Under the pieces are notes generated by a model, which was not told where the DNA came from, did no database searches, and worked only from the letters and a program-made list of their open reading frames with translations. Both the position numbers and the translations under genes were made by a program. This document shows positions 5,053-50,810 of a DNA stretch of 64,000 nucleotides, in pieces; within the stretch, counting starts at the first letter, position 1; every line of letters begins with the position of its first letter. This DNA is from an uncultured Lachnospiraceae bacterium (GTDB lineage: Bacteria > Bacillota > Clostridia > Lachnospirales > Lachnospiraceae), in NCBI GenBank assembly GCA_946616365.1, contig CAMOIX010000004.1, positions 17,555 through 81,554 on the forward strand, in the 5' to 3' direction.

Positions 5053-5073
5053 GGCCGAAAAGGAGAGTAAAAG

Positions 5074-11439: not shown

Positions 11440-11510
11440 AGGGGAATGGTCCAATGGTAGGGCAGCGGTCTCCAAAACCGCTAATGGGAGTTCGATCCTC
11501 TCTTCCCCTG
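11440..11510 (+). tRNA. tRNA-Trp (anticodon CCA)
   Basis: Cloverleaf folded by hand: acceptor AGGGGAA/TTCCCCT, anticodon stem GCGGT/ACCGC with loop CTCCAAA, T arm GGGAG-TTCGATC-CTCTC, discriminator G. CCA is not encoded. Confidence 0.9.
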
Positions 11511-31117: not shown

Positions 31118-31147
31118 TACAGATCTTAATCATTGAAGGTGGAAAGT

Positions 31148-32287: not shown

Positions 32288-35200
32288 GAATAAAGACGTT
32301 AAAAGAGTAATGGTAATAGGCTCCGGCCCGATCGTCATAGGACAGGCTGCAGAGTTTGACTATGCGGGAACGCAGGCGTGCAGAGCGCTTAAGGAAGAAG
32401 GAGTCGAGGTCATTCTCGTCAACTCCAACCCCGCTACTATCATGACGGACCGTGACATAGCGGATAAGGTCTTTATAGAGCCGCTCGATGTCAAAGTCCT
32501 CGAGGATATCATTGAGAGGGAGAAGCCCGACTCCATACTTCCGACACTCGGAGGCCAGGCGGGACTTAATCTCGGCATGGAGCTCGAAGAGAGCGGATTC
32601 TTAAAGAGCCATAATGTAAAGCTACTCGGAACCAGCGCATGGACGATAAGGAGCGCAGAGGGACGTCAGGAATTTAAGGACCTCATGGAGAGGATAGGAG
32701 AGCCCTGTGCCGCATCGACAGTCGTTACCTCGGTAAAGGACGGTGAGGATTTCGCTGACCAGATAGGCTACCCGGTAGTGCTTCGCCCCGCATATACCCT
32801 CGGAGGAAGCGGAGGCGGAATAGCGCACAACAGAACGGAGCTCGATGAGATACTCGAGAACGGACTCAGACTATCCCGTACATCCGAAGTACTCGTAGAG
32901 AGATGTATAGCGGGATGGAAAGAGATCGAGTATGAGGTGATGAGAGACAGCGCCGGCAGCTGCATCACCGTATGTAACATGGAGAATATCGACCCCGTAG
33001 GAGTTCACACAGGAGATTCCATCGTAGTCGCTCCCTCACAGACTCTCATGGACAAGGAGTACCAGATGCTCCGTACGTCCGCATTAAAGATAATAAATGA
33101 ACTTAAGATCACGGGAGGATGTAATGTACAGTTTGCACTTCATCCCGAGAGTTTTGAATACTGTGTAATAGAGGTTAACCCCAGAGTCAGCCGTTCTTCG
33201 GCACTCGCATCCAAGGCTACAGGATATCCTATAGCAAAGGTTGCAGCCAAGATCGCACTTGGATATACGCTCGATGAGATACCAAATGCGATAACGGGAA
33301 AGACCTTCGCCAGCTTCGAGCCTGCGCTTGATTATTGCGTAGTCAAGATGCCCAGACTTCCTTTCGACAAATTCCTCACCGCCAAGAGAACCCTCACGAC
33401 TCAGATGAAGGCGACCGGTGAGGTTATGAGTATATGCAATAATTTCGGCGGCGCTCTCATGAAGGCCATAAGGAGTCTTGAGCAGCATGTAGACTGTCTG
33501 AGAAGCTATGATTTCACTGCGCTTACGGATGAGGAACTTGAGGCCCAGCTTAATGTCATAGATGACAGACGCATATGGGTCATCGCGGAAGCGCTTCGAC
33601 GCGGAGTATCCGAAGAGCATATCCATGAGATCACCAAGATCGATATCTGGTTCATCGATCAGATAGCGATACTTACGGAGATGGAAGGCGCACTTGAGAA
33701 ATCGGGAAAGAGTTTGGATGAGGATCTCTTAAGAGAAGCCAAGAGACTCGAATTCCCCGACAGCGTCATCGCGAGACTTACAGGTCTATCCGAGAAGGAA
33801 GTTCACGACAAGAGATATGAACTCGGCATTCATACCGCTTACAAGATGGTAGATACCTGCGCAGCTGAGTTTGCTGCGGCTACGCCTTACTACTACTCGG
33901 TATACGGTAAGTGCGAGGAGAACGAAGCCAGGGAGACCTGCGACCGCAAGAAAGTCCTCGTATTAGGTTCCGGTCCTATCAGAATAGGTCAGGGTATAGA
34001 GTTTGACTATTGCTCCGTACATGCGACCTGGTCTTTCTCCAAAGCCGGATACGAGACCATCATAGTAAACAATAACCCCGAGACGGTTTCTACCGATTTC
34101 GATATTGCAGATAAGCTCTACTTCGAACCTCTGACCGATGAGGATGTCGAGGAGATCGTCAGACTCGAGAAGCCCGACGGAGCAGTCGTACAGTTCGGCG
34201 GACAGACTGCGATCAAACTCACAGAGCACCTCATGAGGATAGGAGTACCCATCCTCGGAACCAAAGCAGAAGATGTCGATGCTGCCGAGGACAGAGAGCT
34301 CTTTGATCAGATACTCCAGAAGACCGGTATACCGCGCGCTGCGGGAGGTACCGTATTTACCGCAGAGGAAGCCAAGAAGATCGCCAATGAACTCGGATAT
34401 CCCGTGCTCGTGCGTCCCAGCTACGTACTCGGCGGACAGGGAATGCAGATCGCAACCTGTGACAAAGAGATCGAAGAGTTTATGGAGATCATCAACCGCA
34501 TTGCGCAGGATCACCCCATACTCGTAGATAAATATCTCATGGGCAAGGAGATAGAGGTTGATGCCGTATGTGACGGAGAGGATATACTCATCCCCGGTAT
34601 CATGGAACATATAGAGCGTACCGGAGTACACTCAGGAGACTCGATCTCCGTATATCCCGCACCGACTATCGGTAAACTCATCAAGGACAAGATCGCGGAC
34701 TATACACATCGTCTTGCGACTGCACTCCACGTCAAAGGACTTATCAATATACAGTTCATCGCCATAGATGAGGATGTATATGTCATAGAGGTCAACCCCA
34801 GATCCTCACGTACCGTACCTTACATCAGCAAGGTAACCGGTATCCCCATCGTAGATCTTGCGACCAAGGTCATACTGGGATCTAAGATAAAGGATCTCGG
34901 ATACAAGCCCGGACTTGCACCCGAAGCAGAGTACTATGCGATCAAGATGCCCGTATTCTCCTTTGAGAAGATCCGCGGAGCTGAGATAAGCTTAGGACCT
35001 GAGATGAAGTCCACCGGTGAGTGCCTCGGTATAGCCAAGACTTTCCACGAGGCTCTCTACAAGGCATTCCTCGGAGCCGGAGTAAAGCTTCCCAAGTATA
35101 AGCAGATGATCATCACCGTCAAGGATGCGGATAAGGGCGAAGCGATAGGCATAGCCAAGAGATACGAGAAACTCGGATATACGATCTATGCGACGAGAAG

Positions 35201-35492
35201 TACCGCCGCAGCTCTTAACGAAGCCGGCGTAAAGGCTCGTAAGGTCAACAAGATATCTCAGGAGAGCCCCACCGTCATGGACCTTATCCTGGGACATAAG
35301 ATAGACCTCGTAATAGACACTCCCACTCAGGGACGCGACAAGTCCAGGGATGGATTCCTCATCAGACGAAATGCCATCGAGACAGGCGTATACTGTATCA
35401 CGGCGATGGACACCGCGCGTGCTCTCGTCAACAGTATGGAACATGTCAATGAGAACGGTAAGCTTGAACCTGTAGATATTGCGGCCCTGTAG
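32280..35492 (+). CDS. carB: carbamoyl-phosphate synthase large subunit
   Basis: 1070 aa with duplicated ATP-grasp halves (VMVIGSGPIVIGQAAEFDYAG and VLVLGSGPIRIGQGIEFDY) and an MGS-like C-terminus. Overlaps the carA stop. Confidence 0.96.
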   Translation: MPKNKDVKRVMVIGSGPIVIGQAAEFDYAGTQACRALKEEGVEVILVNSNPATIMTDRDIADKVFIEPLDVKVLEDIIEREKPDSILPTLGGQAGLNLGMELEESGFLKSHNVKLLGTSAWTIRSAEGRQEFKDLMERIGEPCAASTVVTSVKDGEDFADQIGYPVVLRPAYTLGGSGGGIAHNRTELDEILENGLRLSRTSEVLVERCIAGWKEIEYEVMRDSAGSCITVCNMENIDPVGVHTGDSIVVAPSQTLMDKEYQMLRTSALKIINELKITGGCNVQFALHPESFEYCVIEVNPRVSRSSALASKATGYPIAKVAAKIALGYTLDEIPNAITGKTFASFEPALDYCVVKMPRLPFDKFLTAKRTLTTQMKATGEVMSICNNFGGALMKAIRSLEQHVDCLRSYDFTALTDEELEAQLNVIDDRRIWVIAEALRRGVSEEHIHEITKIDIWFIDQIAILTEMEGALEKSGKSLDEDLLREAKRLEFPDSVIARLTGLSEKEVHDKRYELGIHTAYKMVDTCAAEFAAATPYYYSVYGKCEENEARETCDRKKVLVLGSGPIRIGQGIEFDYCSVHATWSFSKAGYETIIVNNNPETVSTDFDIADKLYFEPLTDEDVEEIVRLEKPDGAVVQFGGQTAIKLTEHLMRIGVPILGTKAEDVDAAEDRELFDQILQKTGIPRAAGGTVFTAEEAKKIANELGYPVLVRPSYVLGGQGMQIATCDKEIEEFMEIINRIAQDHPILVDKYLMGKEIEVDAVCDGEDILIPGIMEHIERTGVHSGDSISVYPAPTIGKLIKDKIADYTHRLATALHVKGLINIQFIAIDEDVYVIEVNPRSSRTVPYISKVTGIPIVDLATKVILGSKIKDLGYKPGLAPEAEYYAIKMPVFSFEKIRGAEISLGPEMKSTGECLGIAKTFHEALYKAFLGAGVKLPKYKQMIITVKDADKGEAIGIAKRYEKLGYTIYATRSTAAALNEAGVKARKVNKISQESPTVMDLILGHKIDLVIDTPTQGRDKSRDGFLIRRNAIETGVYCITAMDTARALVNSMEHVNENGKLEPVDIAAL

Positions 35493-35539: not shown

Positions 35540-38500
35540 ATGAGCATAGTATATACCAGCGAAAAGTGTATAGGTTGCAATAAGTGCATCAAAGTATGCA
35601 GTGCTGTCGGTGCGTGCATTTCCGAGGAAAAAGACGGAAAGGCACGCATTATTGTAGACGGAGCTAAATGCGTAGCCTGCGGAAGCTGTATCGACGTATG
35701 CGCCCACGGAGCCAGAGAATTCGAGGACGATACCGGGAGATTCTTTGCAGACCTTAAGAAGGGCGAGAAGATATCGCTCCTTCTTGCACCTGCTTTCAAA
35801 GCAAACTATCCCGACGAGTACGAGAGCGTGCTCGGAGGATTAAAGCAGCTCGGAGTAAACCGCATCATAAGCGTGTCCTTCGGAGCTGATATAACGACCT
35901 GGGGCTATCTTAACTATATCAAAGAGCATGATTTCGTCGGAGGCATCTCGCAGCCCTGCCCCGCGCTCGTTTCATTTATCGAGAAATATATTCCCAAACT
36001 CATAGATAAGCTTTTCCCCGTGCAGAGTCCCCTTATGTGCGCAGCCATATATGCGAGAAAACAGATGGGGATCACGGACAAGTTTGCTTTTATCAGTCCT
36101 TGTATAGCAAAGAAAGTAGAGATAGATGATCCTCATAATGAAGGGCTCGTTCAGTACAATGTCACTTTTGAGCATCTCATGAAGTACATTCGTGATAATG
36201 ATATCAAAGGACCTTCCATACACAGTGAGATAGAGTACGGACTCGGATCCTTCTACCCTACGCCGGGCGGACTCGCAGAGAATGTCAGATGGTTCCTCGG
36301 AGACAGTGTATATATCAGACAGATAGAGGGTGAGAGACATCTCTACGAATGGCTCTATTCTAATGCGGACAGGATAAAGGATAACAAGACGCCTTTCCTC
36401 TTTATCGACGCGCTTAACTGCAAGAAGGGATGTATCTGCGGTACGGCGGTTAATCCCGATAAGGCAAAGACTGATGATGCGCTCTACGCGCTTCTCGATA
36501 TCAGAGAGAAATCCAAGAAGGCAGAGAAGGGCGATGCCTGGTCCAAGGCTGAGACACCCGAAGAGAGGCTCAGACTGTTTAACGAGCAGTTTGCTGACCT
36601 TGACCTGAATGATTATATCAGGGGATATACAGACAGATCCGCTGATTGTAAATTCAAGATACCTACCGAGGAAGAGTTCGACGAGATCTTTAAGAGCATG
36701 AACAAATTCACGGAGGAATCCAGAAATATCGACTGTACCTGCTGCGGATATGACCGCTGCAAGCACATGGCCCTCGCTATATACAATGGCTTCAACCATA
36801 AAGAGAACTGTATCTACTATGAGAAGACGATGGTACGTGAACTCGAAGTGGAGAAGGCTGTCGCAGAGGAAGCAAACCGTGCAAAGAGTTCTTTCCTTGC
36901 AAATATGAGCCACGAGATACGTACGCCTATCAATGCTGTCCTCGGTATGAACGAGATGATACTGCGTGAGAGCAATGAATCCGGCATCACATCGTATGCC
37001 GAATCGATAAGGAGTGCGGGCAATACGCTCCTCGGTCTGGTCAATAACATACTCGACTTCTCCAAGATAGAAGCCGGCAAGATGGATATCGTGGAGGTTA
37101 ATTACGACCTGTCCTCCGTCATCAACGATCTCGTCAATATGATCGCCATCAAAGCGCAGGATAAGGGCCTCGAGCTTGAGATGAGCTTTGATCAGCATAT
37201 TCCGAAGTCACTCTTCGGAGATGAGATCCGCATCAAGCAGATCATCACCAATATCCTTACGAATGCAGTCAAGTATACCGAGAAGGGTAAGGTTTCGTTT
37301 AATCTGGGATTTGAGAAGATTGAGTCGGATCCTGAACATATTGAGCTGAAGGTATCGGTAAAGGACACCGGTATAGGAATAAAGCAGGAAGATATCTCCA
37401 GACTCTTTGAGAAGTTTGACCGCATAGAGGAGGAGAGAAACAGAAATATCGAGGGTACCGGTCTCGGTATGAACATTACTCAGAGGCTTCTCGAGATGAT
37501 GGGATCGTCTCTGCAGGTGGAGAGTGTTTACGGCGAGGGTTCTACATTTAAGTTCTCTCTGAAGCAGAGAGTCGTCAAATGGGATGAACTCGGAGACTTC
37601 GAGTCCGCTTACAAGCAGTACGTCTCACAGAGAGAAAGTTATAAAGAGAAATTCACGGCACCTGAGGCGGAGGTTCTCGTCATCGATGATAACCCGATGA
37701 ACCTTATGGTATTTAAGAGTCTCCTCAAGCAGACGCTGATCAAGGTCGATGCGGCCAATGACGGATACGAGGGACTTGAATTCGCACAGAAAAAGAAATA
37801 TGACATCATATTCTTTGATCATATGATGCCCGGTATGGATGGTATAGAGACTCTGCACAGGATGCGCGCGGAAGACGGCCCCAATAAGGGTACTGTCTCC
37901 GTATGCCTCACGGCCAATGCAATATCCGGAGCGAGAGAGGAATACATCAAAGCGGGATTTGACGATTATCTCACCAAGCCCGTAGATCCTCCCAAGATAG
38001 AGAGCATGCTCGTCATGTATCTCCCGAAGGATAAGGTCATCATAACCACCGACACCGGAGAGGACAGCGCTGAAGATGAGAAGTATCCCGAGTATCTTGA
38101 GATGCTTGGCAAGTTCCCCGGTATAGATCTGAAGACCGGAATAAGCATCAGCGGCGGAGTGGATGAGTATGTATCCGTGCTCAAGATATTCGATGAATTC
38201 TTTGATGATAAGTATAACGAACTTCAGGGATTCTACGATACCGATGATATAACCGACTACACGATCAAGGTCCATGCCATGAAGAGCTCTCTCAAGATCA
38301 TCGGTGCAGGCAGATTTGCAGAGAAGGCACAGGCTCTTGAGAACGCGGGTAAGAGCGGAGATATTGCCTATATCAAAGAAAATCATGCTCCTTTCATGGA
38401 TGAACTGAAGACATACAAGAACCCCGTATCGGAAGCGCTGGCTGCGGAAGCGGAAGCGAATGCACCTGCACCTCCGGAGGCAGAATCCATCGATCTCGAG

Positions 38501-38686
38501 TGGATGGATGAGATCTACGGAGAGATGAAGGATGCGGCACAGTGCAAGGAGATGAACCGTATCACGAGCATCCTTGATGAACTTCGCGATTTCGATGTCC
38601 CGGCCGGAGAACGCGAGAAACTCGACCAGATAGAAAACTGCGCAGAGGCAGGAGATTTCGAAGCAATATTGGCAGTGATAGGATAA
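35540..38686 (+). CDS. hybrid histidine kinase with ferredoxin + [FeFe]-hydrogenase-like + FeS-motif sensor, REC and Hpt
   Basis: 1048 aa. 2x[4Fe-4S] motifs (CIGCNKCIKVC; CVACGSCIDVC). Fe_hyd_lg_C-like region with SQPCP (C140), SPCIAKKVE (C188) and NCKKGCICG (C294/C298/C300). DCTCCGYDRCKHMALAIYNG...C (399-424). H-box FLANMSHEIRTPINAVLGMNEMIL, HATPase, REC (VLVIDDNPMN...FFDHMMPGMDG) and Hpt (VHAMKSSLKIIG). Confidence 0.88.
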   Translation: MSIVYTSEKCIGCNKCIKVCSAVGACISEEKDGKARIIVDGAKCVACGSCIDVCAHGAREFEDDTGRFFADLKKGEKISLLLAPAFKANYPDEYESVLGGLKQLGVNRIISVSFGADITTWGYLNYIKEHDFVGGISQPCPALVSFIEKYIPKLIDKLFPVQSPLMCAAIYARKQMGITDKFAFISPCIAKKVEIDDPHNEGLVQYNVTFEHLMKYIRDNDIKGPSIHSEIEYGLGSFYPTPGGLAENVRWFLGDSVYIRQIEGERHLYEWLYSNADRIKDNKTPFLFIDALNCKKGCICGTAVNPDKAKTDDALYALLDIREKSKKAEKGDAWSKAETPEERLRLFNEQFADLDLNDYIRGYTDRSADCKFKIPTEEEFDEIFKSMNKFTEESRNIDCTCCGYDRCKHMALAIYNGFNHKENCIYYEKTMVRELEVEKAVAEEANRAKSSFLANMSHEIRTPINAVLGMNEMILRESNESGITSYAESIRSAGNTLLGLVNNILDFSKIEAGKMDIVEVNYDLSSVINDLVNMIAIKAQDKGLELEMSFDQHIPKSLFGDEIRIKQIITNILTNAVKYTEKGKVSFNLGFEKIESDPEHIELKVSVKDTGIGIKQEDISRLFEKFDRIEEERNRNIEGTGLGMNITQRLLEMMGSSLQVESVYGEGSTFKFSLKQRVVKWDELGDFESAYKQYVSQRESYKEKFTAPEAEVLVIDDNPMNLMVFKSLLKQTLIKVDAANDGYEGLEFAQKKKYDIIFFDHMMPGMDGIETLHRMRAEDGPNKGTVSVCLTANAISGAREEYIKAGFDDYLTKPVDPPKIESMLVMYLPKDKVIITTDTGEDSAEDEKYPEYLEMLGKFPGIDLKTGISISGGVDEYVSVLKIFDEFFDDKYNELQGFYDTDDITDYTIKVHAMKSSLKIIGAGRFAEKAQALENAGKSGDIAYIKENHAPFMDELKTYKNPVSEALAAEAEANAPAPPEAESIDLEWMDEIYGEMKDAAQCKEMNRITSILDELRDFDVPAGEREKLDQIENCAEAGDFEAILAVIG

Positions 38687-38732: not shown

Positions 38733-38767
38733 ACGCCATGATCAGAAGTGATCGTTGACCATGGCGT
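38733..38767. terminator. imperfect hairpin between convergent genes (weak terminator candidate)
   Basis: ACGCCATGATC pairs with GACCATGGCGT (10 of 11 bp) with a 13-nt loop. The flanks are only modestly T/A-rich. Confidence 0.35.
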
Positions 38768-38783
38768 TTAATATCAAGGATTA

Positions 38784-41261
38784 TTAGTTAACCTTCTTTA
38801 CCAATGCCATCTCCATTATCTTATCGCACAGATCGCCGAAGCTCCTGCCGTCCGCTTTTGCGGAGAGGACAAGGTGGGAGTCGGGATAGAGCTGAGGGAG
38901 TGAGTCACACTCCAAGCATACGAATTCTTTGAGGTCCTTGTCGACCATGAAATCCATCTTAGCATATGCATTAACGCCGAGGGCAAAGGCAGCGTCCTCG
39001 GCTGCTTTCATTAATCTCTTTGAGAGTTCTTCGGGGATATCTGCGGGGCACTTGGTAGCCTGCTCTCCGGTCAGAGTCATGCCCTTTTCTTTATCCTTGG
39101 TCTCGAGGGGAAGCTTTTCAAGTACGGGGAGAGCTTTGCCTCCTACGGTACATACAGCGAATTCGCGTCCTGCGAAGTATTCCTCGACGAGTACTTCGGT
39201 ATCCCATCTGAAAGCATTGTTCACAGCCTGACGGTAAGCGGCCGGGTCGCCTGCTACGCTTATTCCGAGTCCTATACCACCGTTATTGGGCTTAACGATC
39301 ACAGGATAGCTAAGTCCCTTTTCTGTAGGATCGGGGATAGGAGCGCCCTTTCTGATGCAGTATCCGTCGGGGACGGGTACGCCGGCGTCGGTCATTACGA
39401 GCTTAGCCGATATCTTGTTGGAAGTGATAGCGGATGAGAATGAGTCGCATCCGGTGTAGTCTATTCCAAGCAGGTCTAATGCAGCCTGTACCTTACCGTT
39501 CTCGCCGTTAGCTCCGTGAAGAGCAACGAAGACGAGATCGGCCTGTTTGCATATCTGGAGTACATTGGGACCGAAGTAAGAGTCGGACTGGTCCGTACGG
39601 CGCTTTCTCGTAGCCCAGAGATCGGGAATCTCATCGGGGATATCCTTGGGAGCGAGAGAGTACTTAACAGGATCCTTAAATACATCGGGCAGGAGTTCCT
39701 CGGTTTCTCCGTATCCGAAGAATACATCGAGAAGTACGACATTGTTGCCACGGTTTCTGAGGACCTCCGCAACAGTGACACCGGTCTTTAATGAGAGGTT
39801 TCTCTCGTTGGAAAGACCTCCTGCGAGAACGACTATGTTGAGATTGCCGGGAAGTATGAATTCCCTGAGTTCGTCATCACTTATATATTCGTCCTTAACG
39901 ATGAGGTCGGAACCGTCCATATTGAGCTCCAGAGTGCCGAGCATCTCACGGGTGAGGGATGCGATCTGGAGTATACGCTGTATCTGATCAGGCTTTAAGT
40001 CGACATCATACTTCTTCTTGACGAAAGCCTGGATGCGCCTGGTGATGGGCTTATTTACATGCACGATAAGGAAGTTCGTCACGCCGAGGAGTGCGTTAAG
40101 CTTCTTGGAGTTGACGAGATCGTCGAGCATATCTATTACTTTTAATATCTCGCCCGCGCGGAATGCAGTCATGATGGACTTGAGCGAATCGAGGAGATTC
40201 GGATTCTGACGCGAGTAGAGTATGCAGTACGCGAGGAGATATGCAACATTGTCGGAGTACTTGGGATCTCCGATCATATCGCAGAGGAATGCTATGAATT
40301 CCGATATATCGCAGCCGCTTCCGAGAGAGAATGCCTTCTCTACGAGCATACCTACGAGACGGTTGGTCTCGGATTTTTCTTTTTCACTGACAGCAGAGCG
40401 GATCATACTGTTGATGAACTGATCGAGGATCTGCATCTCAGGACGCTGGCCGGCGGGATTTACACGGATGTTGTACTCGCCGTTCTCTCCGAAGTCAAAG
40501 AATGTATTGGGAGCATGGCTCTCGGAGAATCCGAATTTACCGTAGTCATATCCGATGTAGTATGTCTTCTCGCCGATATCGTTCATGAGGATATTGACGT
40601 AATCGTAGTCGATATTGTGATTCTCGATGACCTTCTGACGGTCGATGATACGGCGCTTATAGTGCTCGATGAATTTATCGGAGAATCCCTGACCGTCAAA
40701 GGATACGCAGCGGTCGGGAGTATCGTTCAGGATGGTGACATATTTTGCTTTGTTGCCGCCCTTGGAGTGACCGATGACTGTGACGAAATACTTGTTTAAA
40801 CCAAGCTGATCATAGGCTCTCTTGTACCACTCGAGTGCATTGATCTGCTGGAGTGAATCTATCTGATTGGCACCTTCGAAGTCGTCGGTCCATTCGTTGT
40901 CCGCAGTTCCGCGGTAAGCAACCACCGCTTCGTGCTTTCCGTTCTCGTCGGGCTCGCCGGCATCGTTCTTTATGACAATAGAGATACCGCCGCCGGCACC
41001 GTATGCCGTATCGAGGTGAGCCTCTGCGATAAGCGAGTTTGAGATAGCCGGGTTTTTCAGGATGGCGAGGATGACATTACGGAAATCGAATCCGTTCATC
41101 TGCGTTGTGTATGTGCGCTCATTATCGAGAGCATCCAAATCTATCGCACCCAGGTATTCGCCGACGGTCTTTCCCTCTGCATGAAGGATAGATACGAGCG
41201 GAGCCATATCCGGCATATATGTGAGGTGTTCTATAAGCAGCAGTTCGTCGGTACGGTACAT
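38784..41261 (-). CDS. fusion protein: DUF2974/Mbeg1-like serine hydrolase + helical linker + D-alanine--D-alanine ligase-like ATP-grasp
   Basis: 825 aa. Residues ~100-260 carry VVAYRGTADNEW...VIGHSKGGNKAKY (GHSKGG nucleophile elbow, Ser166). Residues ~473-825 carry VVLAGGLSNERNLSLKTG, VALHGANGENGKVQAALDLLGIDYTG, YPVIVKPNNGG, VLVEEYFAGREF and MDFMVD...LECDSLP. GGAGG Shine-Dalgarno lies 19 nt after the upstream stop. Confidence 0.85.
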   Translation of the reverse strand: MYRTDELLLIEHLTYMPDMAPLVSILHAEGKTVGEYLGAIDLDALDNERTYTTQMNGFDFRNVILAILKNPAISNSLIAEAHLDTAYGAGGGISIVIKNDAGEPDENGKHEAVVAYRGTADNEWTDDFEGANQIDSLQQINALEWYKRAYDQLGLNKYFVTVIGHSKGGNKAKYVTILNDTPDRCVSFDGQGFSDKFIEHYKRRIIDRQKVIENHNIDYDYVNILMNDIGEKTYYIGYDYGKFGFSESHAPNTFFDFGENGEYNIRVNPAGQRPEMQILDQFINSMIRSAVSEKEKSETNRLVGMLVEKAFSLGSGCDISEFIAFLCDMIGDPKYSDNVAYLLAYCILYSRQNPNLLDSLKSIMTAFRAGEILKVIDMLDDLVNSKKLNALLGVTNFLIVHVNKPITRRIQAFVKKKYDVDLKPDQIQRILQIASLTREMLGTLELNMDGSDLIVKDEYISDDELREFILPGNLNIVVLAGGLSNERNLSLKTGVTVAEVLRNRGNNVVLLDVFFGYGETEELLPDVFKDPVKYSLAPKDIPDEIPDLWATRKRRTDQSDSYFGPNVLQICKQADLVFVALHGANGENGKVQAALDLLGIDYTGCDSFSSAITSNKISAKLVMTDAGVPVPDGYCIRKGAPIPDPTEKGLSYPVIVKPNNGGIGLGISVAGDPAAYRQAVNNAFRWDTEVLVEEYFAGREFAVCTVGGKALPVLEKLPLETKDKEKGMTLTGEQATKCPADIPEELSKRLMKAAEDAAFALGVNAYAKMDFMVDKDLKEFVCLECDSLPQLYPDSHLVLSAKADGRSFGDLCDKIMEMALVKKVN

Positions 41262-41280
41262 CTTTAAGCCTCCGTGTTAA

Positions 41281-41763
41281 CTAGTTGGATTCGATCTCTT
41301 CGATGAGAGCCTGATATACGAGGTTTAAGTTCTCGTTTTCTTTTCTTATGTTGCGGACGAGGTTTACTCCTATGAAACGCAGGAGTGATACGCCTGCAGC
41401 GGGGTGAGAGTCTGCGTATGCGTCAAAGTCTTTCCTTGAGATGGATACGCAGGTGCAGTCCGATTTGGCGCGCACTGTAGCGGAACGCTTGTCGCTGTCT
41501 ATGAGAGCCATCTCGCCGAATACGCAGTGCATATCGGATTTGAGGGAAGCGCAGACAAATTTATCTCCGAAGACGGTGGTCTTGATGATATCTACATCAC
41601 CGTCTATGAGGAAGTACATATCCGATCCGGTATCACCTTCCGTGATGATATCAGTGCCCGCGGAAAAGTCGGACGGCTTGAGGAGCTTTGCAAAGTCCTC
41701 GAGATCGCTGCCGGAGATGGAGCTTAAGAGCGGGAAAGTTTTAAGCTTTTCGGTGTATTCCAT
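41281..41763 (-). CDS. stand-alone cyclic nucleotide-binding (CAP/CRP effector-type) domain protein
   Basis: 160 aa. The phosphate-binding cassette-like FGEMALIDSDKRSATVRA sits within a beta-roll, and no DNA-binding HTH follows. The start overlaps the channel gene stop (TGATG). Confidence 0.85.
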   Translation of the reverse strand: MEYTEKLKTFPLLSSISGSDLEDFAKLLKPSDFSAGTDIITEGDTGSDMYFLIDGDVDIIKTTVFGDKFVCASLKSDMHCVFGEMALIDSDKRSATVRAKSDCTCVSISRKDFDAYADSHPAAGVSLLRFIGVNLVRNIRKENENLNLVYQALIEEIESN

Positions 41764-42950
41764 CAGATCTCCTCCCCGAGTATTATCGCACCGCAGTTAC
41801 CCGGGATGATATAGTCATCGCCGGGATTTAAGCGGGGTTCGTTGGTTTCCATTTCTTTTACTGACTTAAGGCGCTGTATGATCTCACCGTAGTTGGTTGA
41901 TTTCTGGGCCTCGGAGAGGATGTTGTGCTTGATCTCTTTCTCAACTCCCATGTTCTCCAGGATGCCGAGGAGGAGGAAGTTCTTCTCCGATTTATACCAG
42001 TCAAAGAGTTCGCCGTATCTCCTGCCGATCCAGGACTCGCTGATGGGCTCTATCTGGACGGAGGTACCGTCACCGTTGTCGAGGAAGGAACTCATGACCT
42101 TGCTCATTCCGCTGTAATTGGTAGAGGTAGTGAGGATGTATCTGGTGTATTCTTCGGTGTATATGATCTCTGCACAGTTCTGGGCTTCGAGGTAATTGCG
42201 GTATCTTTCTGTCCTGATCTGTGCACATATATGGCATTTGGAATTGAGGTTTCTTGCGAGGAGAGCAGTTACGAATACTCTGGAGTCGATAAGCTCTTCG
42301 TCAAGGTTCTCGCCGCTCTCACCGATGATGAGAACTTTGGAAGCCTCTTTGATATTGGCGTTCTTGAGGGTCTGCTCCTCGGTGAAGTCACCCTTGAGGA
42401 TGTTTAATCCTTTGAGTTCCGCATCGTCGCGAAGAGTCTGGAGCCTGACGTCCTCGGCTCCGGTGATAAGGATTATGTCGGCTACAGAGAGGTTTTTGTT
42501 TTTATGAAGGATGCCGACAATGAGACTCTTTATGTCGTTTTTCCATCCGCATACGATGATATGTTTTTTCATATTTTGCATTTTCTTGATACCTCTCTCA
42601 GCATTTAATCTGCGCGCGACGAGCGCGGACGATATGTAACCTGTGATGGTGGAAAGTCCTACTACTCCGAGTGAGAGGACTATGAGACCGAGGATTCGCC
42701 CGCCCGGAGTGCCGGTGAATTCGTAATCGTTGCCGGCGAGAGCGAGCATATTGTAGACGAAGACGTCGATGAACGAGAGCCCGTCATCCTTGCCTCCGCC
42801 GTAGATATAGCAGGCATAGCAGACGAGCAGGACGAGCACGAGGATAAGTGTGATGGTATCTGCATGTGCGTCCCGCAGGATCCGGAGGAGGTTTTTCTTC
42901 TTTTCCGGAGTCTTCTGTATTTTCTTGTTTTTATCGGAATTTTTGCCCAT
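41763..42950 (-). CDS. 2-TM ion channel with C-terminal RCK/TrkA-N domain (MthK-like), non-canonical pore loop
   Basis: 395 aa. TM1 ITLILVLVLLVCYACYIY. Pore-helix-like FIDVFVYNMLALAGNDYEFTGTP. TM2 ILGLIVLSLGVVGLSTITGYISSAL. RCK start HIIVCGWKNDIKSLIVGIL resembles the CGW-type Rossmann start of MthK. Confidence 0.8.
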   Translation of the reverse strand: MGKNSDKNKKIQKTPEKKKNLLRILRDAHADTITLILVLVLLVCYACYIYGGGKDDGLSFIDVFVYNMLALAGNDYEFTGTPGGRILGLIVLSLGVVGLSTITGYISSALVARRLNAERGIKKMQNMKKHIIVCGWKNDIKSLIVGILHKNKNLSVADIILITGAEDVRLQTLRDDAELKGLNILKGDFTEEQTLKNANIKEASKVLIIGESGENLDEELIDSRVFVTALLARNLNSKCHICAQIRTERYRNYLEAQNCAEIIYTEEYTRYILTTSTNYSGMSKVMSSFLDNGDGTSVQIEPISESWIGRRYGELFDWYKSEKNFLLLGILENMGVEKEIKHNILSEAQKSTNYGEIIQRLKSVKEMETNEPRLNPGDDYIIPGNCGAIILGEEI

Positions 42951-43024
42951 ACACGGGTTATTTTACTATATTATGCTGTTTTTTGGCAAATCCTTTGAAA
43001 ATCGGCGTATAGAGGGTGTTTTCC

Positions 43025-43054
43025 TTGATTTATCCGAGGAGGGTATGGCATAAT
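43025..43054 (+). promoter_or_regulatory. candidate promoter of the giant surface protein gene
   Basis: TTGATT (43025-43030), an 18-nt spacer ending in TGG, then CATAAT (43049-43054). Confidence 0.4.
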
Positions 43055-43136
43055 GAGAAGAAGAATAAGGTCCTGCAAAAAGGGGCTTATTGTTTGTTGT
43101 GTAAAGAAAAGACAACCGGTTTAAAGGAAGGTTTTT

Positions 43137-46100
43137 ATGTCGCAGAGCATCACGGCTGATAACGGAAAGAAAAAGAAACTTCTGATCATCATTCTGGGAG
43201 TGTTACTTCTCATAGGTATCATCATAGGTATCATAATCTACACAAATGCGATAACCGCAATAACGATGCGTATCCAGAGGCTCGTCGGAACGGTCAATCT
43301 CTACAACGATGACAAGGAAGTAGAGCTCAGGGAAAAGATGAAGCTTGGCGCCGGACAGACTGTAACGACGGCGGGAGAGAGCCTCATCATGGTTTCGCTC
43401 GACGATACGAAGCTTATGACGATGGAGGAGAGCAGCCGCGCGGATATCAAGGCGAGAGGAAAGAAGCTCGAATTCGACCTCATAGACGGGAATCTCTTTT
43501 TCAATGTAACCAAGAAGCTTGGAAAGAAGGAAAGCTTTGAAGTATGCACATCTACCATGGTCTGCGGTATCCGCGGAACCAGTGCATATGTCGGAAAGGA
43601 CTCGACTCGCCATGAGACTCTCATGGTTACGGACGGTATAGTCCATGTGCTCGCGACCAACCCCAGGACGCTCGAGACGACGGAAGTGGATGTATATGCC
43701 GGAGAGATGATCACGATATATCTCGATGAAGAGGCTGAAGGTGACAAGACCATATCCATCGTTAAGAGAAAGTTCAGGGAAGAGGATCTTCCTTCACTTG
43801 CTCTCGATGCGATACGTAAGAGTCCGGAACTGCAAAAGAGGATCGCTGATGCAACGGGATTTAGTGTGGAGAGACTTACGGCCCTGGCAGATGCTACGAG
43901 TAGGGACGGTATCTCGATGTACGGAAGCGCAGCGGACAAGCTCAGCGCAGACGGTATCAAAGATGCGATCCCCATCATGGGAACCAAGGCTCACATCATG
44001 GTAAGCACTGCCAATAATGCGGCAGATACCGCAGGCGAGAACCTTCCCCTTGAGATAGCGATAATAAAGGGGCTTAACGGCACTATGAATGCAGGTGCCG
44101 ATGCGGGATACGGCGATGAGCAGCTCAGTGCGATGGTTGAGAGTTCTTCGGGATGTGTCGACAAATGTATATCTGACGCGCGTGATGCCGGACTCTCTGA
44201 TGAGGAACTTGTAACGGTGGCAAACAGCATCATCGGAGCGCTTCAGTCTTCTGTCGGCGAGATGGCAAAGGCGGACCTTACCACATCCGAGATCGGTCAG
44301 GTAGTTGATGCGATAGAGATCGTATATACGGATGCCATTAAAGATACCGTAGCGGCTGCTTCGGGAACCAATACGGGCGCTAATGCAGGTGCAGGTACGG
44401 AGACCGGTTCGGGCGATGGAACAAGCGCGGGCTCAGGTGAAGATCAGGTAGCGCCGGCACCGTCTTTATCAAGTGCGGGAATACTTGAGGCTGTAAGGAA
44501 TGCCTCTGATTATATCACGAGTACCGTGGACAGTGAGATGATAAAGAAGTCCACGGGAGAGCAGACAGCTGAGGAACTTCTGAGAAAGAGACCTCAGACT
44601 GCGAGCGGAAATGACGGTAACGTCAATGGCGCGGGAAATGATGGTGCTACGACCGGAAACGGTACAGGTAACGGAACCGGCGATGCAAACGGTGGCAACG
44701 GGAATGGTAATGGCGCAGGCGGAAACGGAAATGCAGGGACTGCGGCTGGTGCAGCTAATGCAGGCACAGGTGCTGCAGCTACAGGAACCGGTGCAGGCGC
44801 TACAGGTGCCGGGGATCAGAGTAATTCATCCGGAGACGGTGGAAGCACATCGAGCAACTCATCGAGCAACACGCCGGCAGATACCACGCAGAGAGCAGTT
44901 TCTATCGCAGGCAATATTTCGGGCGGAACCGTAACGGCTTCGAGGACCACTGCAGCTCAGGGTCAGACAGTCACTCTTACTGCTACTCCCGACCAGGGTA
45001 ATGTATTACGGCAGATCACGGTAAATAAGCTTGATGCGAGTGGAAATGTCACCGGCACAGTATCTCTTACCGAAGTAAGTGCGGGCAGCAGCTATTCATT
45101 CAGCATGCCTGCTAATGAAGTTGCGGTAGATGCTGCTTTTGCTCCGTCAATCAGCGGAACACTTTCTATCACGGGTAATACTATAGTCGATTCGGTACTT
45201 ACCGCAACAGTTACCGGAGGATCCAATACGGGTACGCTCAGCTATGTGTGGAAGAGGGGCGGAACTGTTATAGCAGGTGCGACAAGCAGTACATATACGC
45301 TGGTTGCGGCCGATAAGAATAATATCATTTCATGCGAAGTTGTAAGTTCTGTGGAAGCAGGAAAGCTGACAGCTCAGACTGCATCCGCTGTTCAGCCACA
45401 TACATTTGAGGTGACAACGTTATACACTTCCTCAAGAGGAAATGTGGTGACCAAGCTGGGTGATACCGCGGCAACCCGATTTGAAGCAGGAGCGACGGTC
45501 AGAGTATATGTTACCTGCACGGAAGGCTGGGAGGAGCAGAGACCTACCACCGACCAGACCGGTACGACTGTATGGTATGATGCGAACGGTGGATATTACT
45601 ACTTTACGATGCCTGATCCTTCGCCCAATACGCTCGTGTCTCTTGGCGTTACCTTCACTGCGAAGTCGTATGCTGTAACACTGAATGCAGCAGGCGGAAC
45701 GATAAATGCGGGCAATGTCACGACATATACGTACGGAACCGGTGCAACCTTGCCTACAAATGTTACGAAAGCGGACGATGCAACCTTCAGTTACACATTC
45801 GCCGGCTGGTTTGATGCGGCTACGGGCGGAAATCAGGTTACATCGATATCCACTACAGATACCGGAGCGAAGACATTATATGCTCATTGGACAGCAACAC
45901 CCCTGACTACAACGCATACGCTTGATCTCCGGATTGGTATCTGGAATGGTGATATGAATTTGATGCCAATAGTGTATATGGGAATACCATTTGTAACTAT
46001 GACCGATGCGAACGGAAACACCATATTGAGTGGCGGGGATGTACCTGTGGGCGCGGTTGTTACGATTACATATGATCTCTCTGTAGTTAATACCGCTACT

Positions 46101-47810
46101 GCACAGACCACCATAAGTTATGATTCCTGCTGGGTTAATTACGGAAGTGCGCATACTTCGCTAAATTCTTCAGATATTACTACCGGGACCAATTCCGTAT
46201 CATTCGCAATGCCGGATGGCGATGCGGAGGTTGATCTGATATTCCTTGAGGCAGCATCGACAACAGTCACGTACCCTATCAGTACCGTATTTCAGAGAGG
46301 AAATATTATCGCAGTACCGGATCCTTCACAGGGCTTTGGCTCATCGCTTATTAACGAGGAATCAAGCGTGGACGGTATCACGGTTTCCGTAAAGATAAAC
46401 GGTACAACGCCTACGGGAGTTCAGGTGGCTGCTGAGGAAAATGATGCTGTCGAGATCACAATATCATCGGATGAATTGAATATTAATCTGCTTCAATGCT
46501 GGAAACCGGGATCTGCTGGAGGAAAGACCAGTATGGGAGCCCCGCCGCAGCAGCTGACATCTGCGACAGTGACTAATATTTCGGCAAAGTCGAAAAAGAT
46601 ATCATTTACGATGCCGGCTTATGGAGTGGTGATCTATACCGCTTACTCAGGTACAGGATATGCAATATCCTGTGAGCCCGCTCTCGGCGGAACGGTCACT
46701 GCGACACCTTCCGCTCCTTCACAGTATATCTCTAATGTGGCAGCAGGTAATCTCGTAACGATAACGGGTAACCCGGATCAGAACTTTGCACTTGCATCCG
46801 TCGAAGTATTTGATTCGTCGAACAGCAGTGTTACTGTAAGCAACGTTGTATCCAATACCGCCACATTTACGATGCCTTCATCGCCGGTGGTTGTTGTACC
46901 GACATTTACAGTTCCCGGGCCCAATGCGGAGATAACTTTGGATACGGATGAAGTTGATGATATGATGTCACTTCTTGCCCTGCCTGGAGTTTCGAAACTG
47001 ACAATTACGTATACGGCGGGTGACATAGATATATCTTCCGGATCTGATCTTCATATCCCTGCAGGAAAGACATTGGAGATTGCATCAGGTGTTACTCTTT
47101 ATGATAACGGTGGAGTATTTACCAATGATGGAACTATGATCATTGATGCAGGCGGAGCTTTTGAAAACCATAGGCTTATCAGAAATGACGGAACAATTGT
47201 CAATAATGGTACATATACTATCGGTGATTCGTGGGGAGGCGTGCTGTATAATTATGGAACGTTTACAAACAATGCGGATGTTACATACATGCAGACATCT
47301 AATCATGTAGACTGCTTTATGGTTAATTACGGCACTGTGGATGGTAGCGCTGCAAGTGATGTGTATCCCAGACAGCCGAATACAGTGCTTGAGGGATATG
47401 ATGATTCGGGATCGAGCTGGCAGCTTACATGTGGAGGTATTCTTTCAATCTCAAGTGATAATGCGTGGAGCGGTAACAGCTGGCAGTGGAACCCGAGAAA
47501 TACAAATGGGGGAAACAGAGAGAAGTACGGACCGTTTACAAGAGGCGTTGTTATAAATGATGGAGTCACATATATCGGCCAGGGAGCATTCCAGGGTGAC
47601 ACGAGATTGGAGTATATCGTTATACCCACGAGTGTAACTTCTATAGAAGAATACGCTTTCGCGGGAGCAAGTAAACTGACGGATATATATTATGCCGGAA
47701 CTCAGGAACAGTGGGCTACTGTGATAGCAAATACTGACTTTAGCAATGCCGGAAATGGTGCGCTGAGTCGAGATACAGTAACTGTTCACTATAACAGTAC
47801 CGGACCCTGA
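43137..47810 (+). CDS. giant membrane-anchored surface protein: FecR domain, G/N/A/T low-complexity spacer, Ig-like/Listeria-Bacteroides repeats, BspA-type LRR C-terminus
   Basis: 1557 aa. N-terminal TM KKLLIIILGVLLLIGIIIGIIIY. FecR-like VGTVNLYNDDKEVELREKMKLGAGQTVTTAGESLIMVSLDD. GNG/GAG-rich region. Flg_new-type repeat SYAVTLNAAGGTINAG...YTFAGWFDAATGGNQV...LYAHWT. LRR_5-like IGQGAFQGDTRLEYIVIPTSVTSIEEYAFAGASKLTDIYYAGTQEQW. Confidence 0.85.
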   Translation: MSQSITADNGKKKKLLIIILGVLLLIGIIIGIIIYTNAITAITMRIQRLVGTVNLYNDDKEVELREKMKLGAGQTVTTAGESLIMVSLDDTKLMTMEESSRADIKARGKKLEFDLIDGNLFFNVTKKLGKKESFEVCTSTMVCGIRGTSAYVGKDSTRHETLMVTDGIVHVLATNPRTLETTEVDVYAGEMITIYLDEEAEGDKTISIVKRKFREEDLPSLALDAIRKSPELQKRIADATGFSVERLTALADATSRDGISMYGSAADKLSADGIKDAIPIMGTKAHIMVSTANNAADTAGENLPLEIAIIKGLNGTMNAGADAGYGDEQLSAMVESSSGCVDKCISDARDAGLSDEELVTVANSIIGALQSSVGEMAKADLTTSEIGQVVDAIEIVYTDAIKDTVAAASGTNTGANAGAGTETGSGDGTSAGSGEDQVAPAPSLSSAGILEAVRNASDYITSTVDSEMIKKSTGEQTAEELLRKRPQTASGNDGNVNGAGNDGATTGNGTGNGTGDANGGNGNGNGAGGNGNAGTAAGAANAGTGAAATGTGAGATGAGDQSNSSGDGGSTSSNSSSNTPADTTQRAVSIAGNISGGTVTASRTTAAQGQTVTLTATPDQGNVLRQITVNKLDASGNVTGTVSLTEVSAGSSYSFSMPANEVAVDAAFAPSISGTLSITGNTIVDSVLTATVTGGSNTGTLSYVWKRGGTVIAGATSSTYTLVAADKNNIISCEVVSSVEAGKLTAQTASAVQPHTFEVTTLYTSSRGNVVTKLGDTAATRFEAGATVRVYVTCTEGWEEQRPTTDQTGTTVWYDANGGYYYFTMPDPSPNTLVSLGVTFTAKSYAVTLNAAGGTINAGNVTTYTYGTGATLPTNVTKADDATFSYTFAGWFDAATGGNQVTSISTTDTGAKTLYAHWTATPLTTTHTLDLRIGIWNGDMNLMPIVYMGIPFVTMTDANGNTILSGGDVPVGAVVTITYDLSVVNTATAQTTISYDSCWVNYGSAHTSLNSSDITTGTNSVSFAMPDGDAEVDLIFLEAASTTVTYPISTVFQRGNIIAVPDPSQGFGSSLINEESSVDGITVSVKINGTTPTGVQVAAEENDAVEITISSDELNINLLQCWKPGSAGGKTSMGAPPQQLTSATVTNISAKSKKISFTMPAYGVVIYTAYSGTGYAISCEPALGGTVTATPSAPSQYISNVAAGNLVTITGNPDQNFALASVEVFDSSNSSVTVSNVVSNTATFTMPSSPVVVVPTFTVPGPNAEITLDTDEVDDMMSLLALPGVSKLTITYTAGDIDISSGSDLHIPAGKTLEIASGVTLYDNGGVFTNDGTMIIDAGGAFENHRLIRNDGTIVNNGTYTIGDSWGGVLYNYGTFTNNADVTYMQTSNHVDCFMVNYGTVDGSAASDVYPRQPNTVLEGYDDSGSSWQLTCGGILSISSDNAWSGNSWQWNPRNTNGGNREKYGPFTRGVVINDGVTYIGQGAFQGDTRLEYIVIPTSVTSIEEYAFAGASKLTDIYYAGTQEQWATVIANTDFSNAGNGALSRDTVTVHYNSTGP

Positions 47811-50685: not shown

Positions 50686-50730
50686 ATGTTTACCCCGTGA
50701 AAGACCGTAAAAGGTATAGCCCGGTTCCGA

Positions 50731-50810
50731 TGCGGATAGAGGGACTCGAACCCTCACGCTTGCGCACAAGAACCTAAATCTTGCATGTCTACCAATTCCA
50801 TCATATCCGC
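50731..50810 (-). tRNA. tRNA-Leu (anticodon TAG)
   Basis: The minus-strand sequence GCGGATATGATGGAATTGGTAGACATGCAAGATTTAGGTTCTTGTGCGCAAGCGTGAGGGTTCGAGTCCCTCTATCCGCA folds by hand. Acceptor GCGGATA/TATCCGC, anticodon stem CAAGA/TCTTG with loop TTTAGGT, an 11-nt variable arm, and T arm GAGGG-TTCGAGT-CCCTC. Confidence 0.88.

Follow-up and report, generated by a model that had tools for sequence, protein, structure and literature searches.

A three-gene operon in rumen Lachnospiraceae: a K+-channel-derived pore subunit, a separate cyclic-nucleotide-binding protein and a lipase-like/ATP-grasp fusion

What could a relative of K+ channels, a small cyclic-nucleotide-binding protein and a hydrolase fused to a ligase-type ATP-grasp domain have to do with one another? 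The question is raised by three adjacent minus-strand genes at positions 38784 to 42950 of a 64,000-nucleotide (64-kb) stretch of DNA, hereafter the window, from an uncultured Lachnospiraceae bacterium (GenBank assembly GCA_946616365.1, contig CAMOIX010000004.1, positions 17,555 to 81,554). An earlier, sequence-only reading of the window had proposed the three genes as a module linking a second-messenger receptor, a membrane conductance and a cell-wall-type enzyme. The explanation that we favor, though tentatively, is that of a composite operon encoding a two-polypeptide, non-K+-selective channel regulated by cyclic mononucleotides (cNMPs), together with a lipase/ATP-grasp enzyme of the cytoplasm whose target is the membrane and not the wall. 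In such a model, a cyclic nucleotide would bind a small soluble sensor docked on the pore subunit and the sensor would regulate a non-K+-selective cation pathway, whereas the product of the third gene would be a bifunctional cytoplasmic enzyme, uniting a serine lipase with an ATP/Mg-binding ATP-grasp domain of remodeled substrate site, that would work on membrane lipids rather than peptidoglycan precursors by deacylation and ATP-dependent ligation. By co-expressing this enzyme with a cNMP-controlled cation conductance, the operon would provide one membrane/ion-homeostasis response.

Gene structure and the channel-sensor pair

The open reading frames (ORFs) and junction sequences bear out the proposed arrangement of three minus-strand genes joined by a 1-nt overlap and a 19-nt gap with GGAGG, and with it that of a tightly packed, co-directional three-gene unit. 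Gene 1 (the channel; ORF 42950-41763) encodes 395 residues, gene 2 (the cNMP sensor; 41763-41281) 160 and gene 3 (the fusion; 41261-38784) 825. The features of the locus are the following, with the basis of each in brackets.

42951..43136, no strand: divergent intergenic region with a promoter-like site (consensus match only)
41763..42950, minus: gene 1, pore subunit with two transmembrane (TM) helices, TM1 and TM2, around a pore helix, then an RCK domain (MthK match over pore and RCK)
42723..42752, minus: filter-equivalent segment NMLALAGNDY, residues 67-76, standing where T(V/I)GYGD was (subfamily alignment)
42159..42575, minus: RCK N-lobe, residues 126-264 (Slo-like_RCK 8.3e-13, TrkA_N 3.7e-8)
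41281..41763, minus: gene 2, stand-alone cyclic-nucleotide-binding protein of 160 residues, translationally coupled to gene 1 (Pfam, junction)
41470..41520, minus: phosphate-binding cassette FGEMALIDSDKRSATVR, residues 82-98 (alignment to CRP E72/R82/S83; conserved in 41 homologues)
41290..41364, minus: conserved C-terminal helix NLVRNIRKENENLNLVYQALIEEIE, residues 134-158 (candidate channel-docking element)
41262..41280, minus: 19-nt spacer with the gene 3 ribosome-binding site GGAGG
38784..41261, minus: gene 3, lipase-like, helical and Ddl-type ATP-grasp domains, 825 residues (Pfam, PDB matches)
40452..41261, minus: Mbeg1-like/DUF2974 alpha/beta-hydrolase (lipase-like) domain, residues 1-270 (Pfam, conservation)
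40755-40772, minus: nucleophile elbow GHSKGG, residues 164-169 (conservation in fused and unfused sequences)
39897..40451, minus: helical middle domain, residues 271-455 (common to unfused paralogues in secretion loci; all-helical in a low-confidence model)
38787..39845, minus: divergent Ddl-type ATP-grasp domain, residues 473-825 (sits where the unfused paralogues have a WXG100-like hairpin)
38735..38767, no strand: stable hairpin between convergent genes (folding against shuffles)

At the channel/sensor junction (...GGGGAGGAGATCTGATGG), the A of the channel stop codon TGA is also the A of the sensor ATG (TGATG), and a Shine-Dalgarno sequence lies within the last channel codons (GGGGAGGAG, 5-13 nt upstream of the sensor ATG). 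A promoter-like TTGCCA-18-TAAAAT at 42989-42960, just upstream of the channel start, agrees with the consensus at 10 of 12 positions. At the opposite end, the hairpin proposed between the convergent genes is real (about 38735-38767; -20.8 kcal/mol, z = -4.0, with 0 of 200 shuffles folding equally well) and is likely a terminator. A U-run is absent on the minus strand and a run of TTTAATAT follows the hairpin on the plus strand, suggesting that the hairpin may serve chiefly as terminator of the convergent kinase gene or work both ways. A scan against Rfam detected neither riboswitches nor other RNAs within the operon or next to it.

Pfam matches and alignments likewise support the identification of the parts as an atypical channel, a cNMP-binding protein and a hydrolase/ATP-grasp fusion. 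The gene 1 product scores 48.5 bits with Slo-like_RCK (cut-off 24) and 34.1 bits with TrkA_N (cut-off 23.8), and over its N-terminal third it can be aligned with MthK through TM1, pore helix and TM2, the whole match reaching E = 3e-6 over pore and RCK; both the two TM helices around a pore helix and a cytoplasmic RCK/TrkA_N domain after the inner helix are present. What is missing is the K+ filter signature T-(V/I)-G-(Y/F)-G-D, in place of which the window channel reads LAGNDY; across 163 aligned sequences, the T-V-G-Y-G-D-Y of the MthK filter corresponds to L-A-x-x-G-N-D-Y. N67, L69, G73, N74 and D75 are invariant in the channel subfamily, as is GNDY as a whole, and an exhaustive search of 1.84 billion representative proteins yielded only a handful of representatives with a GNDY-type motif, most relatives at 22-34% identity with an aligned pore region carrying (T/I)(V/T)GYGD. 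By these alignments, gene 1 is a descendant of MthK-type 2TM+RCK K+ channels that lacks the K+ filter, and the loss of the selectivity filter (TVGYGD to LAGNDY) indicates that it probably forms a non-K+-selective cation pathway.

The gene 2 product consists of a bare binding domain (Pfam cNMP_binding, 64.8 bits against a cut-off of 27.5), with the regulatory domains of PKA and PKG as its best PDB relatives and with further matches to SthK, MloK1 and PycTIR. Its cassette FGEMALIDSDKRSATV contains both Gly-Glu and Arg-Ser-Ala, FGEMAL...RSATV aligning to CRP E72/R82/S83, and all homologues retain it, those of a sister clade discussed below among them; the protein thus combines the Pfam match and the G-E...R-(S/T)-A pattern of CAP_ED domains. 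In CRP and PKA, the Gly-Glu and Arg-Ser-Ala residues contact the ribose and phosphate, and as judged from its residues the gene 2 cassette is intact for binding of the cAMP/cGMP type. Conservation in the sensor family is highest over the final 25 residues (NLVRNIRxENENLxLVYQALIEEIE) and extends even to the approximately 50%-identical sister clade, and this C-terminal helix probably docks the sensor on the channel.

Compared with known channels, the pair is familiar in its elements and unusual in their combination. MthK and other 2TM RCK-gated K+ channels share the succession of TM1, pore helix, TM2 and RCK, and gene 1 has a conserved Met before the RCK domain; MthK, however, carries TVGYGD, whereas gene 1 has GNDY, is one residue shorter there and is always paired with a separate cNMP-binding protein. 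MloK1 and SthK similarly combine a K+-channel-type pore with a canonical cNMP-binding domain, to which the sensor matches at 1e-7 to 1e-10, but in these channels the binding domain is fused to a 6TM pore via a C-linker, while here it is a separate protein of 160 residues next to a 2TM + RCK subunit with a non-K+ filter. We infer that the sensor gates the channel in trans. The plant channels CASTOR, POLLUX and DMI1 have ADAGNH/ADSGNH as their filters, and are RCK channels with a non-canonical A-G-N filter comparable to LAGNDY of gene 1; yet they are eukaryotic, have tandem RCK domains and lack a cNMP-binding partner, the match to CASTOR is weak, insignificant (E = 0.015) and confined to the RCK domain, and the likeness of the filters may be convergent. 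If the proposed assembly is correct, a K+-channel-derived pore without K+ selectivity whose cyclic-nucleotide sensor is a separate subunit would be a new channel design, undescribed among bacterial cyclic-nucleotide-gated (CNG) and RCK channels.

As a further observation on gene 1, the Met codons for M124 and M127 (42570-42581, minus strand), just before the RCK domain, are nearly invariant and GAGAGG lies about 11 nt upstream of the M124 codon, so that an internal translation start is possible. In MthK, an internal start at the equivalent position yields soluble RCK subunits.

The fusion protein and its unfused paralogues

To place gene 3, we scanned genomes (one per species) with its N-terminal 470 residues, which returned 80 loci holding fused proteins and unfused paralogues. 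Pfam assigns residues 110-207 to Mbeg1-like (DUF2974, PF11187; 33.6 bits against a cut-off of 21.1), followed by Dala_Dala_lig_N and Dala_Dala_lig_C. The nucleophile elbow GHSKGG, a GxSxG lipase motif, is found in 166 of 170 fused and 20 of 21 unfused sequences, and the serine itself, S166, in 169/169 and 21/21, respectively. Ser166, D220/D228 and H249 are invariant in fused and unfused proteins alike, with D220/D228 and H249 as candidate triad partners, and this invariance suggests that the lipase is probably active. The sequence-only reading had this part hydrolyze D-aminoacyl-type bonds; what is found instead is a lipase-like domain with a Ser nucleophile (GHSKGG) and paralogues in type VII secretion system (T7SS) loci. 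An AlphaFold2 model of the N-terminal 470 residues, built on a 9-sequence alignment, has a mean predicted local distance difference test (pLDDT) score of 61, below 50 for most of residues 200-470, and renders the middle region all-helical at this low confidence. Foldseek against the PDB found no match at E <0.001, the best being weak ones to the class-3-lipase-like FaeA and MDLA (E = 0.03-0.08), and a PDB sequence search gave no match for the lipase/helical part. DUF2974 is a domain of type IV and type VI secretion system antibacterial effectors (PMC6536674, PMC11854122).

The unfused paralogues (536-593 residues, 35-45% identical over residues 4-455, from ORF clustering in the 80 genome loci) lie in loci that encode an EssC-type FHA-FtsK/SpoIIIE ATPase, YukD and several WXG100 proteins. 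Homology between the two forms stops at ...NMDGSD, near residue 452, after which the unfused proteins continue with a helical hairpin of about 100 residues and the fused proteins with the ATP-grasp domain. The hairpin is WXG100-like (hhalign probability 96.3%, E = 1.6e-9), and a C-terminal LXG/WXG100-like targeting domain is therefore present in the unfused paralogues and absent from the window protein. The unfused architecture is that of TslA and TslM, the 'reverse' lipase toxins of the Staphylococcus aureus T7SS, in which an N-terminal GxSxG lipase is followed by a helical region and a C-terminal WXG/LXG-like hairpin (PMC10730906, PMC13560087). The likeness, drawn from architecture only, extends to the adjoining WXG100 genes and putative extracytoplasmic immunity protein of the unfused paralogues; the window protein differs by its ATP-grasp domain in place of the hairpin and by the lack of T7SS genes nearby. 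The simplest reading of these comparisons is that an exported lipase toxin scaffold became a cytoplasmic protein when its export hairpin was exchanged for an ATP-grasp domain, although the opposite direction of evolution may also hold. If the former is true, the fusion would be a case of an interbacterial lipase toxin scaffold domesticated into an intracellular enzyme, its export signal swapped for an ATP-grasp domain.

The candidate immunity genes are informative in the same respect. A gene of one ORF family (cluster 3) precedes almost all unfused paralogues, and in most such loci it encodes a signal peptide or lipobox; the family matches no Pfam entry, whereas the published TslA/TslM immunity proteins are DUF576 and DUF1433. 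The window contains no cluster-3 gene, but in 12 fused genome loci one stands between the sensor gene and the fusion, and one also precedes the fusion in the Anaeroplasma locus L043, where the channel and sensor genes are absent. All 13 full-length cluster-3 copies of fused loci lack a signal peptide. That gene 3 might still be secreted, as a T7SS antibacterial toxin with two warheads, lipase and ATP-grasp, would accord with its roughly 455 residues of homology to proteins embedded in T7SSb loci; we nevertheless regard this as highly improbable, since the WXG100-like targeting hairpin is exactly what was replaced, EssC, YukD and WXG100 genes are found neither in the 64-kb window nor within about 8 kb in 53 fused loci (those with at least 1.7 kb of upstream sequence), the cluster-3 partner is without a signal peptide in every fused locus that has one, and conservation is high and uniform, unlike that of polymorphic toxins.

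Among the unfused paralogues, a single T7SS locus of Anaerosporobacter faecicola (L079, 7102-12010) holds two tandem cluster-3/lipase pairs; the second lipase carries GFSSGG, a degenerate form of the nucleophile motif, and is partnered by a cluster-3 protein without a signal peptide.

The C-terminal part of the fusion belongs clearly to the family of D-alanine-D-alanine ligases (Ddl). It aligns end to end with Pseudomonas aeruginosa DdlA (2e-37) and Escherichia coli DdlB, PDB matches to Ddl enzymes reach down to 1e-37, and Dala_Dala_lig_N and _C both score above their Pfam cut-offs; the curated Ddl models NCBIfam PRK01372 and TIGR01205, on the other hand, are not reached (205.2 against 243 bits and 189.5 against 245.65). 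Across 170 family members, in DdlB numbering, the ATP/Mg ligands K97, K144, E180, E187, D257 and E270 are kept in 163-170 sequences (96-100%). The Ddl substrate and catalytic residues (E15-S150-Y216, K215, R255, N272, G276, S281-L282) are, E15 excepted, not preserved as a set: S150 has become I (158/170), R255 K (159/170) and N272 D (168/170), further conserved changes are S151 to G, G276 to Q/H and L282 to H/Q, and the omega-loop pair K215-Y216 has no conserved counterpart in register. In DdlB, S150, K215/Y216, R255, N272, G276 and L282 bind D-Ala or stabilize the transition state, so that conserved changes at these positions point to purifying selection for another substrate or, possibly, for a function in sensing. 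As read from the alignment, the ATP-grasp domain is not a canonical Ddl, and a housekeeping Ddl was rejected as a candidate for the same sub-cut-off scores and changed substrate residues. Known Ddl and VanA-type ligases share both Pfam domains, the full-length alignment and the ATP/Mg ligands, but the present ligase domain stands behind a 470-residue lipase/helical module and outside a cell-wall gene cluster. A practical consequence is the risk of mis-annotation: a Ddl-family domain with a possibly new substrate is easily called a D-Ala-D-Ala ligase, and one source already so names a relative.

These features bear on the role in cell-wall precursor editing that the sequence-only reading had given the Ddl part. 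By that explanation, envelope-stress signaling would lead to the editing of peptidoglycan precursors, the fusion making D-Ala-D-Ala and hydrolyzing D-aminoacyl bonds. The secure family assignment and retained ATP/Mg ligands speak for it; the scores below all curated Ddl cut-offs, the replacement of S150, K215/Y216, R255, N272, G276 and L282, a lipase-type N-terminal domain with T7SS-locus paralogues and the absence of mur or fts genes around the fusion in the annotated flanks speak against it. In addition, the fusion is present in the genome of Anaeroplasma bactoclasticum. Anaeroplasma is a wall-less genus (Mollicutes), which together with the non-canonical Ddl domain makes cell-wall precursor editing unlikely, and we consider the explanation as a whole very unlikely.

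A more specific form of action on lipids, which we rate as improbable, would make gene 3 a tRNA-independent lipid-modifying enzyme: by VanA-like acyl-phosphate/ester chemistry, the ATP-grasp domain would attach D-alanine or another small acid to a lipid head group or lysolipid bound or made by the lipase scaffold, and the channel would couple membrane charge to cation flux. Operons such as those of MprF/LpiA with AcvB or PA0919 encode aminoacyl-lipid synthases and hydrolases (PMC13197417, PMC6103681). They offer a functional analogy only, in that ligating and alpha/beta-hydrolase-type activities on membrane lipids are united in one locus; their synthases are membrane proteins that use aminoacyl-tRNA, in contrast to the would-be ATP-grasp ligase here. 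Koostra and Smith are said to have described, in 1969, an ATP-dependent synthesis of D-alanyl-phosphatidylglycerol in Acholeplasma, a subject on which our literature search found nothing usable. D-alanyl-phosphatidylglycerol independent of aminoacyl-phosphatidylglycerol synthase (aaPGS) has been noted (PMC6103681), and if the lipid-modifying explanation were true it would fit this observation and gene 3 could be the enzyme behind the Acholeplasma lipid.

Distribution of the pair and of the fusion

Is the association of the three genes more than an accident of one genome? The order channel, cNMP gene, fusion is found in 45 of the 53 fused loci of the genome scan. Next to the fusion, one gene of the pair is never missing alone, the two being absent together, and neither lies beside the unfused paralogue in any of its 22 loci. 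A scan of metagenomes with the channel as query added 80 further loci: the fusion lies downstream in 40 of the 41 that combine a channel identity of 59% or more with 1.2 kb or more of sequence beyond the channel (the exception being L135), and the cNMP gene directly follows the channel in every one with enough sequence. Intergenic gaps range from -4 to 63 nt where no additional gene intervenes. Full-length homologues number in the hundreds for each of the three products, and >80 independent loci show this gene order, synteny persisting to about 50% identity; the sequence-only reading was to stand or fall with synteny outside this genome, and in this respect it stands. Members of a genus-level group share the position of the locus, and the three proteins have diverged in parallel, as with vertical inheritance. 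A neighbor-joining tree of the fusion has the pair on its deepest branches and lacks it in a few subclades, a distribution that suggests loss. The linkage between pair and fusion arose once and has been kept to about 50% identity. Carriers are rumen Lachnospiraceae, in which the module is widespread, and related Acholeplasmatales; they include the cultured Hungate strains AC2028 (JNJD01) and P6A3 (JNKP01) and Anaeroplasma bactoclasticum (QXEV01), which make it experimentally tractable. In two loci, L004 (7226-7474) and L008 (6402-7497), the channel is truncated or frameshifted next to an intact cNMP gene and fusion, by recent decay or assembly error.

Several points weigh against the composite operon. 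The pair does not always accompany the fusion: 8 of the 53 fused loci lack both upstream genes, mostly in Acholeplasmatales and including Anaeroplasma bactoclasticum. Conversely, the pair occurs without the fusion in a sister clade (L143-L162, in part from human gut, with channels 46-52% identical), the genes downstream of the pair being unrelated and variable and the filter segment more degenerate still (FGQDYADHYP, FSRG(F/Y)TD(F/Y)(I/V)P). As each is found without the other, the pair forms one functional unit and the fusion another, and because these units are able to work independently, their co-transcription may reflect co-regulation and not physical coupling. The channel may conduct no ions at all, and an ATP-grasp domain altered in this way (R255K, N272D, K215 without a match in register) is just as compatible with a non-catalytic role in nucleotide sensing. 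In four contexts, the Pfam-annotated flanks contain no gene for a cyclic-mononucleotide cyclase; a PAS-GGDEF gene is seen in one clade. Finally, the contexts that hint at cation transport, nucleotide signaling and phospholipid turnover, described below, come from single loci.

The independence of the two units also underlies the explanation of an operon of convenience, in which pair and fusion came under a shared promoter in one lineage with no mechanistic link between them. Occurrence of each unit without the other and flanking genes that vary between clades agree with this account, which we judge unlikely although deserving of attention. It is countered by the maintenance of the same order, with short or overlapping junctions, to about 50% identity across many flanking contexts: chance adjacency would normally be broken over such divergence and is disfavored.

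The composite operon must further be set against a chromosomally fixed suicide or abortive-infection-like module, a kind of role that the sequence-only reading had also considered. In it, a cNMP from an enzyme encoded elsewhere, formed for instance when a phage infects, would act through the sensor on a non-selective pore and/or a toxin-derived phospholipase and lead to cell death. Pycsar effectors have a cNMP-binding domain similar to the sensor (PycTIR 2.6e-17; PDB 8jsk), the pore has probably lost K+ selectivity, the lipase scaffold derives from interbacterial toxins (PMC10730906, PMC13560087) and the immunity-like cluster-3 product without signal peptide, encoded before the fusion in 13 fused loci, looks like a cytoplasmic antitoxin. 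Like Pycsar (PycTM/PycTIR), the module would couple a cNMP-binding domain to a membrane or toxic effector; in contrast to Pycsar, there is no adjacent cyclase, sensor and effector are separate proteins and the surroundings are not those of a defense island. PADLOC has no system-level match for the module and none for channel, fusion or cluster 3, and for the sensor it recognizes only a generic cNMP-binding domain (PycTIR and TIR-effector models). Housekeeping flanks without integrases, the stable location within genus-level groups, the in-step divergence of the three proteins and a channel-sensor pair that stands alone in the sister clade likewise argue against such a module, and a plasmid search found no channel copy, its matches to the fusion query being plain Ddl genes only. 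Taken together, we hold a suicide function to be rather improbable.

The sequence-only reading could match the module to no named system, and this we can confirm. Our literature search found no description of DUF2974-Ddl fusions, of channels with a separate cNMP-binding subunit or of the whole combination. Taken singly, the parts are variants on known themes (RCK channel, cNMP-binding domain, DUF2974 lipase, Ddl-type ATP-grasp), yet each fails at least one defining trait of its nearest family: the channel has no K+ filter, the sensor is unfused, the lipase has no export hairpin and the ATP-grasp domain has neither the Ddl substrate residues nor scores above the Ddl cut-offs.

Genomic surroundings

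The flanks of the window locus, read through the record of a 99%-identical channel (the exact window fusion protein not being on record), are housekeeping genes: carAB, a hybrid kinase and a FecR/LRR surface protein. The convergent neighbor (35540-38686, plus strand) encodes a hybrid histidine kinase of 1048 residues with an N-terminal 4Fe-4S and [FeFe]-hydrogenase large-subunit-like domain (Fe_hyd_lg_C), followed by HisKA, HATPase_c and a receiver domain, and is a possible H2 or redox sensor. Just beyond it, carA and carB (31133-35492, plus strand), for the small and large subunits of carbamoyl-phosphate synthase, indicate that the operon lies in ordinary chromosomal surroundings. The divergent neighbor (43137-47810, plus strand) encodes a surface protein of 1557 residues with FecR, Flg_new and LRR_5 domains. 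A FecR-domain gene also immediately precedes the channel gene, in the same orientation, in sister-clade loci L143, L145, L153, L156 and L157 (about 4750-5900), and one lies within about 5 kb in L050, L054 and L120, so this adjacency recurs but is not general. Clustering of all flank ORFs revealed no neighbor that recurs across clades beyond cluster 3, and no integrase or defense gene recurrent near the module in the annotated flanks.

Elsewhere the surroundings differ from clade to clade. One clade has a PAS-GGDEF gene divergently upstream, with TrkA and a Na+/H+ exchanger nearby; GGDEF is a diguanylate-cyclase domain, which makes c-di-GMP. In the Anaeroplasma locus L043, HD/HD-GYP-type proteins flank the fusion, which is followed after 18 nt by the start of a P-type cation ATPase gene. 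HD/HD-GYP-type (HD_5) proteins, some with GAF, adjoin the fusion in Acholeplasmatales more than once (L043 105-7180 and 10469-13234; L039 5608-7053), and the ORF family seen at L039 (cluster 31) is also present in L040, L054 and L055; HD_5 proteins are abundant, however, and their recurrence beside the fusion may be chance. In a metagenome-assembled genome of Anaerovoracaceae (L053, 5590-7955), genes for an AMP-binding (acyl-activating-type) protein and a glycerophosphodiester phosphodiesterase directly precede the fusion, a context that fits phospholipid turnover.

The only Rfam matches in the window are two tRNA genes (11440-11510, plus strand; 50731-50810, minus strand), the second of which overlaps the start of the listed ORF 48115-50769, suggesting that the true start of this ORF is probably further downstream.

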